Source of the DNA: a virus
Taxonomy: Duplodnaviria > Heunggongvirae > Uroviricota > Caudoviricetes
DNA length: 22,731 nucleotides
IMG/VR virus record: IMGVR_UViG_2585427766_000007
Reading direction: 5' to 3' (one strand)
Shown: piece after piece, positions 5,756-12,868 of the stretch
How positions within the stretch are numbered: position 1 is the first letter of the stretch
Layout: each line of letters begins with the position of its first letter
Program-made: the position numbers and the translations under genes
Notes under the pieces: model-generated
What the model was told of the DNA's origin: nothing
The model's input: the letters and a program-made list of their open reading frames with translations, nothing else
Database searches by the model: none

Positions 5756-5850
5756 GTTGAAGCCTGCTTTTTTATACTAAGTTGGCATTATAAAAAAGCA
5801 TTGCTTATCAATTTGTTGCAACGAACAGGTCACTATCAGTCAAAATAAAA
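5756..5850 (+). other. attL (B-O-P') of a lambda-type prophage; 15-bp core GCTTTTTTATACTAA at 5766-5780
   Basis: Left of core is TGAAGCCTGC (attB B arm); right of core is GTTGGCATTATAAAAAAGCATTGCTTATCAATTTGTTGCAACGAACAGGTCACTATCAGTCAAAATAAAATC (lambda attP P' arm with Int arm-type sites), running straight into int. Confidence 0.85.
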
Positions 5851-5853
5851 TCA

Positions 5854-6924
5854 TTATTTGATTTCAATTTTGTCCCACTCCCTGCCTCTGTCATCACGAT
5901 ACTGTGATGCCATGGTGTCCGACTTATGCCCGAGAAGATGTTGAGCAAACTTATCGCTTATCTGCTTCTCATAGAGTCTTGCAGACAAACTGCGCAACTC
6001 GTGAAAGGTAGGCGGATCCCCTTCGAAGGAAAGACCTGATGCTTTTCGTGCGCGCATAAAATACCTTGATACTGTGCCGGATGAAAGCGGTTCGCGACGA
6101 GTAGATGCAATTATGGTTTCTCCGCCAAGAATCTCTTTGCATTTATCAAGTGTTTCCTTCATTGATATTCCGAGAGCATCAACATGCAATACTGTTGGGA
6201 TGGCAATTTTTACGCCTGTTTTGCTTTGCTCGACATAAAGATATCCATCTACGATATCAGACCACTTCATTTCGCATAAATCACCAACTCGTTGCCCGGT
6301 AACAACAGCCAGTTCCATTGCAAGTCTGAGCCAACATGGTGATGATTCTGCTGCTTGATAAATTTTCAGGTATTCGTCAGCCGTAAGTCTTGATCTCCTT
6401 ACCTCTGATTTTGCTGCGCGAGTGGCAGCGACAGGGTTTGTTGTTATATGGCCTTCAGCTATTGCCTCTCGGAATGCATCGCTCAGTGTTGATCTGATTA
6501 ACTTGGCTGACGCCGCCTTGCCCTCGTCTATGTATCCATTGAGCATTGCCGCAATTTCTTTTGTGGTGATGTCTTCAAGTGGAGCATCAGGCAGACCCCT
6601 CCTTATTGCTTTAATTTTGCTCATGTAATTTATGAGTGTCTTCTGCTTGATTCCTCTGCTGGCCAGGATTTTTTCGTAGCGATCAAGCCATGAATGTAAC
6701 GTAACGGAATTATCACTGTTGATTCTCGCTGTCAGAGGCTTGTGTTTGTGTCCTGAAAATAACTCAATGTTGGCCTGTATAGCTTCAGTGATTGCGATTC
6801 GCCTGTCTCGGCCTAATCCAAACTCTTTACCCGTCCTTGGGTCCCTGTAGCAGTAATATCCATTGTTTCTTATATAAAGGTTAGGGGGTAAATCCCGGCG
6901 CTCATGACTTCGCCTTCTTCCCAT
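5854..6924 (-). CDS. int: Lambda-type integrase (tyrosine recombinase, 356 aa)
   Basis: Translation MGRRRSHERRDLPPNLYIRNNGYYCYRDPRTGKEFGLGRDRRIA... matches lambda Int as recalled; adjacent to attL. Confidence 0.95.
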   Translation of the reverse strand: MGRRRSHERRDLPPNLYIRNNGYYCYRDPRTGKEFGLGRDRRIAITEAIQANIELFSGHKHKPLTARINSDNSVTLHSWLDRYEKILASRGIKQKTLINYMSKIKAIRRGLPDAPLEDITTKEIAAMLNGYIDEGKAASAKLIRSTLSDAFREAIAEGHITTNPVAATRAAKSEVRRSRLTADEYLKIYQAAESSPCWLRLAMELAVVTGQRVGDLCEMKWSDIVDGYLYVEQSKTGVKIAIPTVLHVDALGISMKETLDKCKEILGGETIIASTRREPLSSGTVSRYFMRARKASGLSFEGDPPTFHELRSLSARLYEKQISDKFAQHLLGHKSDTMASQYRDDRGREWDKIEIK

Positions 6925-7120
6925 TTCTGATCCTCTTCAAAAGGCTACCTGTTACTGGTCGATTTAAGTCAACCTTTACCGCTGATTCGTGGAACAGATA
7001 TTCTCTTCCATCCTTAACCGGAGGAGGGAATATCCTGCATTCGCGCACCCATCGACGAACTGTTTCAAGGCTTCTTGGGCGTCGCTGGCGAGCGTTCCAC
7101 TCCTGAAGTGTCAAGTACAT
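6902..7120 (-). CDS. xis: Excisionase Xis (72 aa)
   Basis: MYLTLQEWNARQRRPRSLETVRRWVRECRIFPPPVKDGREYLFHESAVKVDLNRP... matches lambda Xis; overlaps int start as in lambda. Confidence 0.9.
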   Translation of the reverse strand: MYLTLQEWNARQRRPRSLETVRRWVRECRIFPPPVKDGREYLFHESAVKVDLNRPVTGSLLKRIRNGKKAKS

Positions 7121-7144
7121 CGCAAAGTCTCCGCAATTACACGC

Positions 7145-7168
7145 AAGAAAAAACCGCCATCAGGCGGC
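7145..7168 (-). terminator. Rho-independent terminator candidate upstream of xis
   Basis: Minus strand reads CCGCC-TGAT-GGCGG followed by TTTTTTCTT. Confidence 0.45.
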
Positions 7169-7340
7169 TTGGTGTTCTTTCAGTTCTTCAATTCGAATAT
7201 TGGTTACGTCTGCATGTGCTATCTGCGCCCACAGCATCCAGTGGTCATAGCAGTCGCTGATGTTCTCGGCTTCGATAACTCTGTTGAATGGTTCTCCATT
7301 CTATTCACCTGTGACTCGGAAGTGCATTTATCATCTCCAT

Positions 7341-7363
7341 AAAAAAACTCGCCGTAGCGAGTT
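7341..7363 (-). terminator. Rho-independent terminator candidate downstream of the 142-aa cargo gene
   Basis: Minus strand reads ACTCGC-TACG-GCGAGT followed by TTTTTTT, 46 bp after the stop at 7409. Confidence 0.55.
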
Positions 7364-7408
7364 CAGATATAATTTTCACCAAAGGCAGTAGTTGCTTTAT
7401 GCTAAGAA

Positions 7409-7837
7409 TTATTCAATATCTATTCCTGTAATATCTTTTATTTTTTTTCTTGCAAAGCCTTTTGCTAGTGATTTTGAAACACTCATAAGAGTACTAATCC
7501 CCTCATCCTTAAAGTTTGTTTTTATAGCTTGCCAGACCTCCTTTTGACGTAAGTCAGCAATAAAATCATGCCCTCTTGCTGTCAACCTCAGTGGTACTTC
7601 GATCCAACTATATTCAACACCTTCCCCTAACTCGTTGGACATTATATGACCGAACCCAGGTTTTCCATCAACCCTAACTATTAATTCGTAGTCACATAAT
7701 AATCGCATATGGAAAATAAAATTTTGGTCATATCTATTAAAGCCATTATCCTCTAGTTCACTAAGCATCGTGTCAGGGCCATAAGTTTTTTCGAATGCGA
7801 TAAGTAGATCTTTTAGATATTGCTGGTCTAATTTCAT
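7409..7837 (-). CDS. Hypothetical cytoplasmic protein (142 aa), AT-rich cargo gene; possible DUF2513/YjcQ-like fold
   Basis: ORF with GGAGG Shine-Dalgarno 5 nt before the ATG; own terminator; C-terminal motif RLTARGHDFIADLRQKEVW resembles a recalled L-T-W-x-G-H-E-F motif of DUF2513-type phage proteins (memory only, not searched). Confidence 0.6.
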   Translation of the reverse strand: MKLDQQYLKDLLIAFEKTYGPDTMLSELEDNGFNRYDQNFIFHMRLLCDYELIVRVDGKPGFGHIMSNELGEGVEYSWIEVPLRLTARGHDFIADLRQKEVWQAIKTNFKDEGISTLMSVSKSLAKGFARKKIKDITGIDIE

Positions 7838-7847
7838 TGCCGCCTCC

Positions 7848-7859
7848 GTGACATGTCAC
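7848..7859. promoter_or_regulatory. Perfect 12-bp palindrome GTGACATGTCAC abutting the Shine-Dalgarno of the 142-aa gene; candidate operator
   Basis: Exact self-complementary 12-mer seen directly; regulatory function is inferred. Confidence 0.3.
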
Positions 7860-8083
7860 AGAGATTTATATCATTAATTTTGTTTCGTGCCAGCCTTTGG
7901 TCACCCAGTATTGTGAGTCACCATTACACGGGCATGAATTAACAGGAACTCTCTCGCCGCACTTACGGCAACGTTTTCTGCTAATCGATTTTATACGCCA
8001 GCGCACACGTGCATCATCCTGGCGGCTCAGTAACGCTATGTACTCACCAAACTCGTAAGGCGCACGCCTGAAGCGGCGCGTGG

Positions 8084-8203
8084 CTCAGTTACGCTCCAGC
8101 ATTTCAATTTCCTGAGCATCAAGTACAAGCTCCAGCTTACGCATACCGGATGATGCTTGCTTGGCTCTCTGATCGGCTTTGCGCTCTGCTGCTGATTTAG
8201 TCA
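8084..8203 (-). CDS. Small hypothetical protein (39 aa), MTKSAAERKADQRAKQASSGMRKLELVLDAQEIEMLERN
   Basis: ATG preceded by AGGAAA 6 nt upstream; charged helical peptide; below the size cutoff of the ORF track; coding status unproven. Confidence 0.3.
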
Positions 8204-8497
8204 TTCTGCTTTTCCTGCATCAGGAGAAAGACAATCATGGCGGCGCGGATACTTCCGGTATCTTTTTACGCGATATTACCCTTCAATGACACATACAAGA
8301 AGACAGCCATCAGCAGGAATGAGTGAGGAATCGACAACCAGTAACGCTTAATTATCTATAGTGTCGTATTTGCTTCATAAAATATGGCGAATAACACAAA
8401 GCCCGCAGCAGCTCATTGTGCGGACTTTTCTTATACTTACTTCCTAGAGATAATTCTATGGAGGCATTAAATTAATGCTGTCATTGGTAATATCATA

Positions 8498-9112
8498 TTA
8501 TCTAAAAGTCTTTCCACTTTTAACGTCTAGATATATTCTGTTCGACAACGTCATTCCTCCGCAATATGTGAAATAGATGTTTTCACCCTTATTGCTTGAT
8601 GCCATCCACCCTCCAACTTCCTTAAAATCGCTCTCCGTGCAGACACCTTCACTTATTAACTTCCTAGCTGCCGAAGAAAACTCTTTTTTGTATATACGGT
8701 AGTCATCAGATCCTTTGATTAAGGTATCATTTCTGCTCGCATTTTCAGCAGGATCTGATGGCCTTTCACTGCTAAGATCACTAAGTTTAACCCATTCTGA
8801 AAACTTGCCATTAACGATTCCGTTTTTTCTTGTGCAGGATTTATTACCTTCTTTAATATATTCGCTTTCCCCTCCCACACATGAGGCTGAATATGGCTCA
8901 GTTATACGAACCCATTCACCTTTTTTTTCTAGAAAATCTACGCCTTCCCTGAAAAATAGTTTCCCAGCCACTCCACATTTACTTGAAGGGCAGGTATGTC
9001 TTTCCGTTCGATCAACAACAACCCAAAGTTTTGATTCATTTTTTGCCATTGCCGATGGTATTTGAGATGAGACAATTAACGTAAGCCCTAAAATTAGTGT
9101 TGATTTTTTCAT
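8498..9112 (-). CDS. Secreted/periplasmic Cys-containing protein of unknown function (204 aa), AT-rich cargo gene
   Basis: N-terminal signal peptide MKKSTLILGLTLIVSSQIPSAMA with AXA cleavage motif; AAGGAA Shine-Dalgarno; ~250-bp upstream intergenic region suggests its own promoter. Confidence 0.65.
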   Translation of the reverse strand: MKKSTLILGLTLIVSSQIPSAMAKNESKLWVVVDRTERHTCPSSKCGVAGKLFFREGVDFLEKKGEWVRITEPYSASCVGGESEYIKEGNKSCTRKNGIVNGKFSEWVKLSDLSSERPSDPAENASRNDTLIKGSDDYRIYKKEFSSAARKLISEGVCTESDFKEVGGWMASSNKGENIYFTYCGGMTLSNRIYLDVKSGKTFR

Positions 9113-9362
9113 TGTAATTTCCTTTTACTTTTTACAAAGCATTTAATCATGACTGATTATCTCTAAGCGTAGTAACAGCCTTGTGCGAAACATGTTACCA
9201 AATCGCCATTTCAGTGTATCCACAGTTAGGCTGCCACTTCAAGGATTCCTAGTTACATGGTACGTAAGCGTAATATCCCGTTGGTTGGCAGGTAATAACT
9301 CTGATCAATTCTCCCTTGTCTTTTGCTCTTACGTATGCAAATCTTGTACACTCAACCTAGGC

Positions 9363-9665
9363 TTACAGTTCAGCAATACGCTTACTTCCATCCGAGATAA
9401 CACCTTCGTAATATTCACGCTGCTCGTTGAGTTTTGATTTTGCTGCTTCCAGCTCAACGCGCAGCTTTCCTACCGTTAGCGCAATTTCCTCGTTCTCCTG
9501 GTCGCGGCGTTTGATGTATTGCTGGTTTCTTTCCCGCTCATCCAGCAGTTCCAGCACAATCGATGGTGTTACCAATTCATGGAAAAGGTCTGCGTCAAAT
9601 CCCCAGTCGTCATGCATTGCCTGCTCTGCCGCTTCACGCAGTGCCTGAGAGTTAATTTCGCTCAC
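9363..9665 (-). CDS. Coiled-coil protein in the lambda ea22 position (100 aa), possibly a shortened Ea22 homolog
   Basis: Acidic, heptad-rich sequence (ELEAAKSKLNEQREYYEG); start overlaps the orf73 stop; sits where ea22 lies in lambda; identity from recall is uncertain. Confidence 0.45.
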   Translation of the reverse strand: MSEINSQALREAAEQAMHDDWGFDADLFHELVTPSIVLELLDERERNQQYIKRRDQENEEIALTVGKLRVELEAAKSKLNEQREYYEGVISDGSKRIAEL

Positions 9666-9883
9666 TTCGAACCTCTCTGTTTACTGATAAGCTCCAGATC
9701 TTCCTGGCAACTTGCACAAGTCCGACAACCCTGAACGACCAGGCGTCTTCGTTCATCTATCGGATCGCCACACTCACAACAATGAGTGGCAGATATAGCC
9801 TGGTGGTTCAGGCGGCGCATTTTTATTGCTGTGTTGCGCTGTAATTCTTCAATTTCTGATGCTGAATCAATGATGTCTGCCAT
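9662..9883 (-). CDS. TraR/DksA-type C4 zinc-finger protein (73 aa), lambda orf73-like
   Basis: CCECGDPIDERRRLVVQGCRTCASCQ gives a CxxC...CxxC zinc ribbon typical of TraR/DksA; position matches lambda orf73. Confidence 0.7.
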   Translation of the reverse strand: MADIIDSASEIEELQRNTAIKMRRLNHQAISATHCCECGDPIDERRRLVVQGCRTCASCQEDLELISKQRGSK

Positions 9884-9937
9884 CTTCCATTAATCCCTGA
9901 ATTGTTGGTTAATACGCTTGAGGGTGAATGCGAATAA

Positions 9938-9959
9938 TAAAAAAGGAGCCTGTAGCTCC
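9938..9959 (-). terminator. Rho-independent terminator candidate within the pL operon
   Basis: Minus strand reads GGAGC-TACAG-GCTCC followed by TTTTTTTATT. Confidence 0.45.
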
Positions 9960-9981
9960 CTGATGATTTTGCTTTTCATGT

Positions 9982-10197
9982 TCATCGTTCCTTAAAGACG
10001 CCGTTTAACATGCCGATTGCCAGGCTTAAATGAGTCGGTGTGAATCCCATCAGCGTTACCGTTTCGCGGTGCTTCTTCAGTACGCTACGGCAAATGTCAT
10101 CGACGTTTTTATCCGGAAACTGCTGTCTGGCTTTTTTGATTTCAGAATTAGCCTGACGGGCAATGCTGCGAAGGGCGTTTTCCTGCTGAGGTGTCAT
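9982..10197 (-). CDS. Lambda orf61-like small protein; start uncertain (ATG 10197 gives 71 aa, ATG 10263 gives 93 aa)
   Basis: ORF in the lambda orf61 position between orf63 and orf73; no strong Shine-Dalgarno at either start. Confidence 0.5.
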   Translation of the reverse strand: MTPQQENALRSIARQANSEIKKARQQFPDKNVDDICRSVLKKHRETVTLMGFTPTHLSLAIGMLNGVFKER

Positions 10198-10273
10198 TGA
10201 ACAAGTCCCATGTCGGCAAGCATAAGCACACAGAATATGAAGCCCGCTGCCAGAAAAATGCATTCAGTGGTTG

Positions 10274-10465
10274 TCATACCTGGTCTCTCTCATCTGCTTC
10301 TGCTTTCGCCACCATCATTTCCAGCTTTTGTGAAAGGGATGCGGCTAACGTGTGAAATTCTTCGTCTGTTTCTACTGGTATTGGCACAAACCTGACTCCA
10401 ATTTGAGCGAGGCTATGTGCCATCTCGATACTCGTTCTTAACTCAACGGGAGATGCTTTGTGCAT
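10274..10465 (-). CDS. Lambda orf63-like small protein (63 aa)
   Basis: [36 protein letters not shown]... and the surrounding DNA match the lambda sequence just downstream of exo as recalled. Confidence 0.6.
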   Translation of the reverse strand: MHKASPVELRTSIEMAHSLAQIGVRFVPIPVETDEEFHTLAASLSQKLEMMVAKAEADERDQV

Positions 10466-10626
10466 ACAGCCCCTCGTTTATTATTTATCTCCTCAGCCAG
10501 CCGCTGGGCTTTCAGTGGATTTTGGATAACAGAAAGGCTGGGAAATACCCAGCCTCGCTTTGTAACGGAGTAGACGAAAGTGATCGCGCCTACCCGGATA
10601 TTATCGTGAGGATGCGTCATCGCCAT
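10438..10626 (-). CDS. Lambda orf60a-like small protein (62 aa)
   Basis: [29 protein letters not shown]... overlaps the exo stop exactly as in lambda (GCAATGGCGATGACGCATCCTCACGATAATATCCGGGTAGGCGC). Confidence 0.55.
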
Positions 10627-11297
10627 TGCTCCCCAAATACAAAACCAATTTCAGCCAGTGCCTCGTCCATTTTTTCGATGAACTCCGGCACCATCTCGTC
10701 AAAACTCGCCATGTACTTTTCATTCCGCTCAATCACGACATAATGCAGGCCTTCACGCTTCATGCGCGGGTCATAGTTGGCAAAGTACCAGGCATCTTTT
10801 CGCGTCACCCACATGCTGTACTGCACCTGGGCCATGTAAGCCGATTTTATTGCCTCGAAACCACCGAGCCGGAATTTCATGAAATCCCGGGAGGTAAACG
10901 GGCATTTCAGTTCAAGGCCGTTGCCGTCACTGCATAAACCATCGGGAGAGCAGGCGGTGCGCATATTTTCGTCGCGATAGATGATCGGGGATTCAGTAAT
11001 ATTCACGCCGGAAGTGAATTCAAACAGGGTTCTGGCGTCGTTCTCGTACTGTTTTCCCCAGGCCAGCGCCTTAGCATTAACTTCCGGAGCCACACCGGTG
11101 CAAACCTCAGCCAGCAGGGTGTGGAAGTAGGACATTTTCATGTCAGGCCACTTCTTTCCTGAGCGGGGCTTTGCTATCACGTTGTGAACTTCTGAAGCGG
11201 TGATGACGCCGAGCCGTAATTTGTGCCATGCATCATCCCCCTGTTCGACAGCTCTCACGTCGATCCCGGTACGCTGCAGGATAATGTCCGGTGTCAT
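10617..11297 (-). CDS. exo: Lambda exonuclease (Red alpha, 226 aa)
   Basis: [62 protein letters not shown]... matches lambda Exo. Confidence 0.95.
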
Positions 11298-12079
11298 GCT
11301 GCCACCTTCTGCTCAGTGGCTTTCTGTTTCAGGAATCCAAGAGCTTTCACTGCTTCGGCCTGTGTCAGTTCTGACGATGCGCGAATGTCGCGGCGAAATA
11401 TCTGGGAACAGAGCGGCAATAAGTCGTCATCCCATGTTTTATCCAGGGCGATCAGCAGAGTGTTAATCTCCTGCATGGTTTCATCGTTAACCGGAGTGAT
11501 GTCGCGTTCCGGCTGACGTTCTGCAGTGTATGCGGTATTTTCGACAATGCGCTCGGCTTCATCCTTGTCATAGATACCAGCAAATCCGAAGGCGAGACGG
11601 GCACACTGAATCATGGCTTTATGCCGTAACATCCGTTTGGGATGCGACTGCCACGGCCCCGTGATTTCTCTGCCTTCGCGGGTTTTGAATGGTTCGCGGC
11701 GGCATTCATCCATCCACTCGGTAACGCAGATCGGATGATTACGGTCCTTGCGGTAAATCCGGCATGTACATGATTCATTGTCCTGCTCAAAGTCCATGCC
11801 ATCAAACTGCTGGTTTTCATTGATGATACGGGACCAGCCATCAACGCCCACCACCGGAACGATGCCGTTCTGCTTGTCAGGGAAGGCGTAAATTTCTTTC
11901 GTCCACGGATTAAGGCCGTACTGGTTGGCGACGATCAACAATGCGATGAACTGCGCATCGCTGGCATCACCTTTAAATGCCGTCTGGCGAAGAGTGGTGA
12001 TCAGTTCCTGTGGGTCGACAGAATCCATGCCGACACGTTCAGCCAGCTTCCCAGCCAGCGTTGCGAGTGCTGTACTCAT
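11294..12079 (-). CDS. bet: Bet single-strand annealing protein (Red beta, 261 aa)
   Basis: [66 protein letters not shown]... matches lambda Bet. Confidence 0.95.
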
Positions 12080-12084
12080 CCGTT

Positions 12085-12381
12085 TTATACCTCTGAATCA
12101 ATATCAACCTGGTGGTGAGCAATGGTTTCAACCATGTACCGGATGTGTTCTGCCATGCGCTCCTGAAACTCAACATCGTCATCAAACGCACGGGTAATGG
12201 CTTTTTTGCTGGCCCCGTGGCGTTGCAAATGATCGATGCATAGCGATTCAAACAGGTGCTGGGGCAGGCTTTTTTCCATGTCGTCTGCCAGTTCTGCCTC
12301 TTTCTCTTCACGGGCGAGCTGCTGGTAGTGACGCGCCCAGCTCTGAGCCTCAAGACGATCCTGAATGTAATAAGCGTTCAT
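12085..12381 (-). CDS. gam: Gam RecBCD inhibitor (short form, 98 aa)
   Basis: [37 protein letters not shown]... matches lambda Gam; AGGAG Shine-Dalgarno; DNA upstream of ~12463 diverges from the recalled lambda sequence. Confidence 0.9.
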
Positions 12382-12457
12382 GGCTGAACTCCTGAAAATG
12401 GCTGTGAAAATATCGCCCGCGAAATGCCAGGCTGATTAGGAAAACAGGAAAGGGGGG

Positions 12458-12868
12458 TTAGTGATTCAGGCCGTTACCGCGTCCGTCGAGAAAAACTTCC
12501 ACGAGCAAATCACTGGTATAAGTGCGCTCGATGCCGCGATGCAGATAAAGCCGTCCGCGTAAATTAGCTGATGCAGTCCAGGTACCATCTTTGTGTTTGA
12601 CCAGCATTCCTGGCATGACCGCGCCGCGATTAACGGTCTGTGTTCCGTAATGTTGATGAACCATAAAAACTCCTGCCCGTAAGCTGGGCTGCTGAACATA
12701 TAGAGACTTCTGCGCATATTCAGGCGGTGGATGGCCGCCGGTTGTCATAACTAAGCCGCCTCGTTGAAGCGACTGAGGTATGAAATGTTGAGTTAATTTC
12801 AGCTGGTCACACCGACGTTCACGCGTCCGTTTCACCCCTCGCACTCCCCGAAGCCTGCTGAAATTCAA
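12458..12868 (-). CDS. Hypothetical ORF between pL and gam; candidate N-type antiterminator (arginine-rich N-terminus); start codon unresolved
   Basis: N-terminal VKRTRERR resembles the arginine-rich motif of lambdoid N proteins; position right after the putative pL; only TTG/GTG starts near the N-terminus; a strong internal CAGGAG-ATG at 12664 would give a 68-aa product. Confidence 0.3.
   Translation of the reverse strand: MNFSRLRGVRGVKRTRERRCDQLKLTQHFIPQSLQRGGLVMTTGGHPPPEYAQKSLYVQQPSLRAGVFMVHQHYGTQTVNRGAVMPGMLVKHKDGTWTASANLRGRLYLHRGIERTYTSDLLVEVFLDGRGNGLNH

Follow-up and report, generated by a model that had tools for sequence, protein, structure and literature searches.

A mosaic insert in the exo-xis region of a lambda-like prophage and its candidate envelope-acting protein

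The exo-xis region of the lambda-like E. coli prophage analysed here (IMG/VR record IMGVR_UViG_2585427766_000007; the whole stretch of 22,731 nucleotides is called the window in the following) carries a 1,989-bp insert with genes for a putatively exported protein of 204 amino acids (aa), a broken 112-aa protein and a 142-aa DUF2513 protein. The best explanation, which we hold with moderate confidence, is a mosaic replacement that combined two unrelated accessory modules with a recombination scar between them and brought in a 204-aa protein that would act on the cell envelope. The insert most likely contributes an envelope-acting lysogenic-conversion or exclusion protein together with accessory genes of the early-operon type. 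The limits of the insert, its mosaic make-up, the folds of its products, the purifying selection and the distribution are results of the analysis, and what is said on export, wall binding, promoter activity, synthesis in lysogens and protection is inferred. A first-pass annotation of this DNA had interpreted the whole cluster as a moron, that is, an extra gene with its own promoter and terminator between conserved phage genes (the definition of the Hendrix laboratory; examples are bor and lom of lambda and gp15 of HK97). This interpretation can be kept for the cassette of the 204-aa gene, which has its own mobility, a conserved upstream block of 142 bp and a following hairpin, but not for the DUF2513 and 112-aa genes, which are of the early-operon type.

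The insert replaces ea8.5 and the 3' part of ea22

The prophage adjoins ybhC, i.e. the lambda attachment site, and its minus-strand genes int (5854-6924) and xis (6902-7120) lead into the region under study. A blastn comparison with lambda (J02459) aligned window positions 5766-7373 with lambda 27724-29333 at 98.6% identity and positions 9363-12464 with lambda 30093-33193 at 97.6% identity. Identity to lambda ends at 7373 and restarts at 9363, in the blastn matches as well as in junction alignments, and the DNA in between has no lambda counterpart. It is extra DNA between adjacent phage genes, although not a pure addition, as it stands in place of 759 bp of lambda. One of the two junctions is located at a gene end, the other inside ea22. 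The following features were assigned to the insert.

7374-9362, minus strand: insert of 1,989 bp of mosaic origin, in place of lambda 29334-30092 (759 bp; ea8.5 and the 3' part of ea22)
9254-8398, minus strand: module A, the 204-aa gene with upstream block and downstream hairpin
9113-9254, minus strand: upstream block that travels with the 204-aa gene (blastn against the P1-like plasmid)
9242-9213, minus strand: candidate sigma-70 promoter TTGAAG-N18-TACACT, consensus match 8/12
8498-9112, minus strand: gene of the 204-aa protein (signal peptide, SH3b-like domain, C-terminal domain without family assignment)
8428-8398, minus strand: terminator-like hairpin with U-rich tail, 70 nt after the stop codon of the 204-aa gene, fold of -15.3 kcal/mol
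8237-8347, minus strand: 37 codons from the interior of a HumD/UmuD-like S24 peptidase gene, interrupted by a stop codon
8204-7409, minus strand: module B, a 112-aa gene of zinc-ribbon type and the winged-helix gene DUF2513
7866-8204, minus strand: 112-aa gene of the phiV10p55/epsilon15 gp49 type (phrog_536), a pseudogene with an in-frame TGA at codon 40 (8087-8085)
7848-7859, no strand: palindrome GTGACATGTCAC (12 bp, perfect), after the 112-aa gene and before the Shine-Dalgarno (SD) sequence of DUF2513; also at L064 3486-3497 and at L148 about 2485-2496
7409-7837, minus strand: gene of the 142-aa DUF2513 protein, in which C-terminal helices follow a winged helix-turn-helix domain; SD sequence GGAGG at 7847-7843

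The first-pass annotation had placed the cluster at 7121-9362, at the site of ea8.5 and the end of ea22 in lambda. The position was exact, but the first part (7121-7373) is lambda backbone and the insert proper begins at 7374. Its three open reading frames (ORFs) of 204, 39 and 142 aa on the minus (early-left) strand were found at 8498-9112, 8085-8204 and 7409-7837, and the intergenic region of about 250 bp that it had seen upstream of the 204-aa gene measures 250 bp (9113-9362). It had recognised none of the cargo between xis and the (truncated) ea22 gene, a region that is non-essential in lambda, in agreement with our finding that no product matches Ea8.5 or the lost part of Ea22.

The base composition is unlike that of the neighbouring genes for the DUF2513 gene (GC 0.352) and the 204-aa gene (0.385). 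The non-coding stretches beside the latter (8348-8497 and 9113-9362) have 0.34-0.40, as compared to 0.45-0.49 in the lambda flanks. A GC content far below that of the flanks, as had been assumed for the cluster, is therefore true for these two genes and their spacers but not for the 112-aa gene (the stretch with the 39-aa ORF), which has 0.496.

The 204-aa protein has features of an envelope protein

The N-terminus of the 204-aa protein, MKKSTLILGLTLIVSSQIPSAMA followed by K, is a standard signal peptide (residues 1-23) with an AXA cleavage site (AMA before the K); its relatives have a signal peptide or, in several cases, a lipobox. Six cysteine residues are invariant in the family (29 sequences). 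The AlphaFold2 model is confident (pLDDT 89.5) and has, by structural likeness, an SH3b peptidoglycan-binding fold, which precedes a cysteine-containing C-terminal domain of 90 residues without any relative in Pfam, NCBIfam or the PDB. A profile of this domain comprises 527 clusters, in which the domain is always C-terminal and is present alone behind a signal peptide or lipobox, behind SH3b, or behind SH3b with additional ankyrin, coiled-coil or membrane-anchor extensions. In other bacteria, the core of SH3b and C-terminal domain is fused to ankyrin repeats, to a zinc ribbon and a membrane anchor, or to long N-terminal regions of the coiled-coil or low-complexity type (P0206, P0197, P0299). 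A PDB sequence search with the C-terminal-domain profile yielded only de novo designed TIM barrels; these were summed weak repeat matches and were rejected as spurious. A literature search for the 204-aa family found nothing.

We assume that the protein is exported via the Sec pathway, that it would be cleaved after Ala23 and that the cysteines would form three stabilising disulfides. The SH3b domain would then dock the protein on peptidoglycan, which would allow the C-terminal domain to act on some partner in the envelope. Our best guess is that lysogens would express the protein from a promoter of its own and that it would there alter or shield the cell envelope, be it to exclude superinfecting phages or to protect against an attack that targets the wall.

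The gene is under strong purifying selection. Its dN/dS amounts to 0.10 in comparison to the P1-like copy and to 0.14-0.17 within E. coli, the ORF is intact in 36 of the 45 copies checked, and homologues with 55-68% identity are present in Pseudomonas, Aeromonas and Citrobacter. One could suppose that the insert is decaying junk DNA without a selected function, given that two nonsense mutations (in the 112-aa gene and in orf55), a humD fragment and a truncated ea22 are found within 2.2 kb and that insertion sequence (IS) insertions and deletions affect the region in several genomes. We consider this very unlikely in view of the low dN/dS of the 204-aa gene, of the 204-aa and DUF2513 ORFs that are intact in most copies checked, of the conservation of both families across genera (55-77% identity) and of the presence of the cluster in the phage isolate Chlobot.

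The cassette of the 204-aa gene is found in different mobile elements

A 759-bp block (9254-8496) is common to the window and a P1/P7-like phage-plasmid of E. fergusonii (84% identity, blastn); it reaches from a point 142 bp before the ATG to the stop codon. In comparison to the P1-like copy, both hexamers of the candidate promoter (TTGAAG and TACACT) are invariant and the 18-nt spacer between them differs at five positions. In Chlobot, a G.U pair of the hairpin at 8428-8398 is changed to G-C. The upstream region of the 204-aa gene does not align across genera, the leader shows no compensatory changes that would indicate an RNA structure, and Rfam gave no match within 6900-9800.

In Pseudomonas, a homologue is located 80 bp after a tyrosine integrase gene in a small islet, in Aeromonas in a prophage-like region and in Citrobacter braakii on a 5.3-kb plasmid of the ColRNAI type (ColE1 type). 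Judged from these sequence contexts, the 204-aa gene evidently moves independently between the lambda-like prophage, P1-like phage-plasmids, a ColE1-type plasmid, integrase islets of Pseudomonas and an Aeromonas prophage. No conserved partner gene was found across 42 loci of the family, apart from the integrase of the one Pseudomonas islet, and nothing informative came from the neighbours in this islet or on the P1-like and ColE1-type plasmids. The Pseudomonas islet (L009-L013, L025, L027, L028) consists of the tyrosine integrase gene, the 204-aa homologue and four genes without family assignment, one of them with a weak PHROG match to 'transcriptional regulator', and may be an integrative element or a satellite. 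In the P1/P7-like phage-plasmids (L020 of E. fergusonii and L021, a Logan assembly), the 204-aa gene lies directly downstream of a gene for a HumD-like S24 peptidase, and Tad2-like and dUTPase genes adjoin it.

A humD fragment lies between the modules

The HumD fragment at 8237-8347 is 70% identical (26 of 37 residues, tblastn) to the HumD-like protein of a P1/P7-like phage-plasmid and matches HumD genes on P1-like E. coli plasmids with 82-84% nucleotide identity; PGAP labels it as a partial 'DNA repair protein'. It is not a complete HumD/UmuD S24 ORF, as only residues 46-82 of 130 align and an internal stop is present. The fragment is a recombination scar between the two modules. It had been overlooked by the first-pass annotation, together with the hairpin after the 204-aa gene (8428-8398) and the W9* remnant of orf55 (7160-7327). 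Note that the gene order differs: humD is upstream of the 204-aa gene in the phage-plasmids, and the fragment is downstream of it in the window.

Module B consists of a decaying 112-aa gene and DUF2513

The 39-aa ORF of the first-pass annotation (8085-8204) turned out to be no gene of its own: it comprises codons 1-39 of the 112-aa gene, which is interrupted by a TGA in place of a conserved cysteine codon. Translation of the frame 7866-8204 gave 112 codons with this TGA at codon 40 as the single in-frame stop. Chlobot (TGT), phiV10p55 and a copy in E. coli ESBL15 have Cys40 and an intact gene in each case. The PHROG family phrog_536 matches both halves of the split gene, and PGAP lists the locus as a pseudogene with 'internal stop'. 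Among the full-length copies at IMG/VR and E. coli loci (L068-L106), TGA-40 is present in 19 of 38; one copy has the independent stop C79*, and others have a frameshift or 5' deletions. TGA-40 occurs on two diverged haplotypes, and one origin plus recombination suffices to explain it because both share a local block around codon 40. The possibility that TGA-40 encodes selenocysteine was rejected: a SECIS-like element was looked for and not found, no Rfam match was obtained at E ≤ 1, the fold after the UGA was not better than that of shuffled sequences (z +0.37), and the Cys alleles have this hairpin as well. To judge from the sequence, the 112-aa gene is decaying in the prophage lineage of the window and is dead in the window itself (C40*), so that only DUF2513 is left of module B.

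The 142-aa protein is a member of the DUF2513 family (PF10711; 42.7 bits at a threshold of 29.6, model positions 1-100 of 100), and its ORF is intact across copies in which the 112-aa gene is inactivated. Its putative recognition helix is largely hydrophobic and only the C-terminal helices are basic. In a literature search, DUF2513 turned up only in an unrelated context.

The same pair is found in Cronobacter prophages, where the 112-aa and DUF2513 genes (≈60% identity each) are separated by a 27-28-nt spacer with the same palindrome next to the SD sequence and are placed between early genes and the gene for the small terminase. In Serratia and Citrobacter prophages, only the last codons of the 112-aa gene and the palindrome remain, and DUF2513 lies in early-left or nin-like operons; in all three genera DUF2513 is found inside early operons. 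The location of DUF2513 and the 112-aa gene within early operons elsewhere suggests expression early in the lytic cycle and not in the repressed prophage. Module B was taken from another phage group, and its early-operon accessory genes would be read from pL to the terminator of lambda; the DUF2513 gene of the window lacks its own terminator and reads into lambda's hairpin.

Loci of E. coli, Cronobacter, Serratia and Citrobacter and from IMG/VR retain the palindrome GTGACATGTCAC. The window has a single copy, and one match is what chance would give when up to 2 mismatches are allowed. In prophages of the phiV10 type, it also closes the 112-aa gene where terS follows and DUF2513 is absent, and it therefore belongs to the end of the 112-aa gene and not to DUF2513. 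This weakens a candidate promoter and operator specific for DUF2513 (CTGGCA-17-TATAAA plus palindrome), which we had considered. The palindrome and the last 10-28 codons survive in lineages without the rest of the 112-aa gene.

Two small genes 28 nt apart with a palindrome between them, a downstream product with a winged helix-turn-helix fold and repeated loss of the upstream gene with retention of the downstream one are reminiscent of a toxin-antitoxin pair, with the toxin first and the DNA-binding antitoxin second; the stop codon would then represent loss of the toxin and leave an orphan antitoxin. However, more than 1,000 E. coli genomes and phages like phiV10 have the 112-aa gene without DUF2513, directly followed by terS (the small terminase gene), with the palindrome there too, and neither product matches any toxin-antitoxin or defence model. 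As the 112-aa gene does not need DUF2513 and the two are not obligately co-inherited, we rejected the reading as a type II toxin-antitoxin pair, which we regard as the most improbable of those discussed here.

Distribution of the insert and the question of a common system

Of 5,426 complete E. coli genomes, 131 have the whole 2.2-kb stretch at a coverage of at least 80%, and phage Chlobot has it with 96.6% identity. In the same genomes, the 204-aa gene was found in 133 and DUF2513 in 185, the excess being IS-deleted versions of the same prophage; the allele of the window is present in ≈26 genomes. A remnant of the prophage (int through orf60a, with the cluster) is also found on large plasmids, most of them conjugative, in E. 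coli, Enterobacter, Citrobacter and Klebsiella (pECO-cbb3, NZ_CP026206.1, and matches H139-H154). This remnant is flanked by IS elements and encodes a 204-aa protein with 97% identity.

Prophage ends are a common place for defence or lysogenic-conversion cargo. The insert is close to the end of the prophage, its ORFs are adjacent and co-oriented, and they are co-inherited in the ≈131 E. coli genomes and in Chlobot, which would be in line with a single anti-phage defence system or a lysogenic-conversion operon that works as a unit. Several findings contradict this. The middle gene is a pseudogene in the window and in about half of the copies checked, the humD fragment and a hairpin lie between the modules, and the 204-aa gene and DUF2513 were never found together outside the prophage lineage of the window at the loci examined. 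PADLOC (PADLOC-DB v2) gave no match for any of the five products (E ≤ 0.1), for the intact 112-aa protein or for the neighbours of the genes in other contexts; each gene has its own distribution. Searches of all products against PADLOC, NCBIfam and Pfam returned only DUF2513, a sub-threshold SH3_3 and Ea22. A common system is very improbable. The first-pass annotation, which had taken the three ORFs as one cluster with its own terminators and suggested a check for defence genes, is not supported in this respect: the terminators are those of lambda and the middle ORF is a fragment of a pseudogene.

When and where the genes of the insert may act

Some of our results weigh against an envelope-acting protein expressed from a cassette of its own. 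A strict consensus scan called no minus-strand promoter in the region, and the candidate at 9242-9213, with its 8/12 match, was not among the calls. The hairpin at 8428-8398 barely surpasses shuffled sequences in its fold (z -1.8) and was missed by a strict scan. The SH3_3 match (PF08239) of the 204-aa protein is below the gathering threshold of Pfam (16 versus 27 bits), and peptidoglycan binding is therefore predicted from similarity of the fold. Since the C-terminal domain has no characterised relative, any protective role of the protein is a guess. Because some distant members of the family are found in ordinary chromosomal contexts, a housekeeping role in the envelope is as possible as a phage-related one. 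For module B, the winged-helix domain of DUF2513 (residues 1-97) is acidic (pI 4.8, net charge -7), which is unusual for a DNA-binding domain, and the domain may bind a protein just as well as DNA.

It is possible, though less probable than the mosaic of two modules with an envelope-acting protein, that all genes of the insert are ordinary early genes driven by pL, which act only in infection or induction, on the lysis-lysogeny decision or in host takeover, and are silent in the repressed prophage. All of them are on the early-left strand between the truncated ea22 and xis, in a region of early genes that modulate lysogenisation and induction (PMC3824215, PMC4195576). The early operons that harbour DUF2513 and the 112-aa gene elsewhere and the missing strict promoter match agree with this alternative. 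The 204-aa gene is more difficult to reconcile with it. This gene is also found on a ColE1-type plasmid, in the Pseudomonas integrase islets and at plain chromosomal sites, a conserved upstream block of its own goes with it, and its product, if exported, disulfide-bonded and wall-binding as predicted, is not an obvious early regulator. We therefore prefer to restrict expression from pL to module B and to regard module A as a separate cassette.

If one goes further, the 204-aa protein may define a group of widely mobile single-gene envelope factors, which would be periplasmic and anchored to peptidoglycan, and would protect the carrier cell in that they block tail lysins of incoming phages or wall-degrading toxins. 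Their spread among Enterobacterales, Pseudomonas and Aeromonas would be due to prophages, P1-like phage-plasmids, small plasmids of the ColE1 type and integrase islets. This generalisation is speculative and, in our opinion, rather unlikely. Should the 204-aa protein indeed protect or remodel the envelope, it would be a further example of prophage and plasmid cargo that changes the phenotype of the host, and a first function would be assigned to a C-terminal domain family of ≈500 sequence clusters without Pfam entry. In any case, mosaic exchange in the exo-xis region of lambda can be followed clearly at this locus. It is ordinary lambdoid accessory cargo, whose products are already in public annotation as hypothetical proteins; it opens no long-standing question and is no new system.

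Lambda backbone beside the insert

The DNA on both sides of the insert belongs to lambda and comprises the following features.

7121-7373, minus strand: lambda backbone with an orf55 homologue and two hairpins, within the block of 98.6% identity
7364-7345 and 7170-7151, minus strand: terminator-like hairpins with T-runs (hairpin scan and RNA folding)
7160-7327: homologue of lambda orf55 with a W9* stop (translation, compared with an intact copy)
9363-9665, minus strand: 5' fragment of ea22, 100 codons (PF13935, E 2.9e-29; 'missing C-terminus' according to PGAP)

The first-pass annotation had assigned intrinsic terminators at 7341-7363 and 7145-7168 to the cluster. These hairpins exist, but both are in the lambda backbone and not in the cargo. 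The hairpin at 7364-7345 is lambda's own, just downstream of ea8.5, and the junction alignment places the junction immediately upstream of it. The orf55 homologue is intact in most related prophages and has the W9* stop in the allele of the window.

On the other side, the stop codon of the ea22 fragment arises at the junction with the insert, where identity to lambda ends. With 100 codons left, it is not a full-length Ead/Ea22 gene (PF13935), and since only the first 100 residues are kept, the C-terminal domain that has been described for Ea22 (PMC10834534) must be missing. Homologues of orf73 (TraR/DksA-like), orf61, orf63 and orf60a are located just upstream of the insert.

Comparison with known systems

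The insert resembles morons in that lambda lacks this DNA, which is located between conserved genes, that two of its genes have a lower GC content, and that the 204-aa gene has its own upstream block, a following hairpin and a product that is predicted to be exported, as is the case for several known morons. It differs from them in that it replaces lambda genes instead of being added between them, that the candidate promoter of the 204-aa gene is a weak match to the consensus, and that only one of the three ORFs fits the definition. With the lambda exo-xis genes (ea8.5, ea22, orf61, orf63, orf60a, orf73) it shares genomic position and strand; however, Ea8.5 is absent, Ea22 is cut to 100 residues, and none of the new products is similar to the lost ones.

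The 112-aa gene corresponds to phiV10p55 and epsilon15 gp49 (phrog_536, labelled 'transcriptional regulator') in length, in its cysteine pattern and in 90.7% nucleotide identity (to phiV10p55) over the whole gene. In contrast to phiV10p55, the copy of the window is broken by the TGA at codon 40 and has lost another conserved cysteine (C99Y), and in phages of the phiV10 type the gene lies just before the small terminase gene and not in the exo-xis region. DUF2513 is not a member of the MarR/PadR-type winged-helix regulators by sequence, and differs from them by its acidic domain (pI 4.8) and its hydrophobic putative recognition helix. Finally, SH3b domains are known from endolysins, lysostaphin and NlpC/P60 peptidases. 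Unlike these, the 204-aa protein has no catalytic domain and carries the 90-residue C-terminal domain instead, and it is predicted to be periplasmic in a Gram-negative host.

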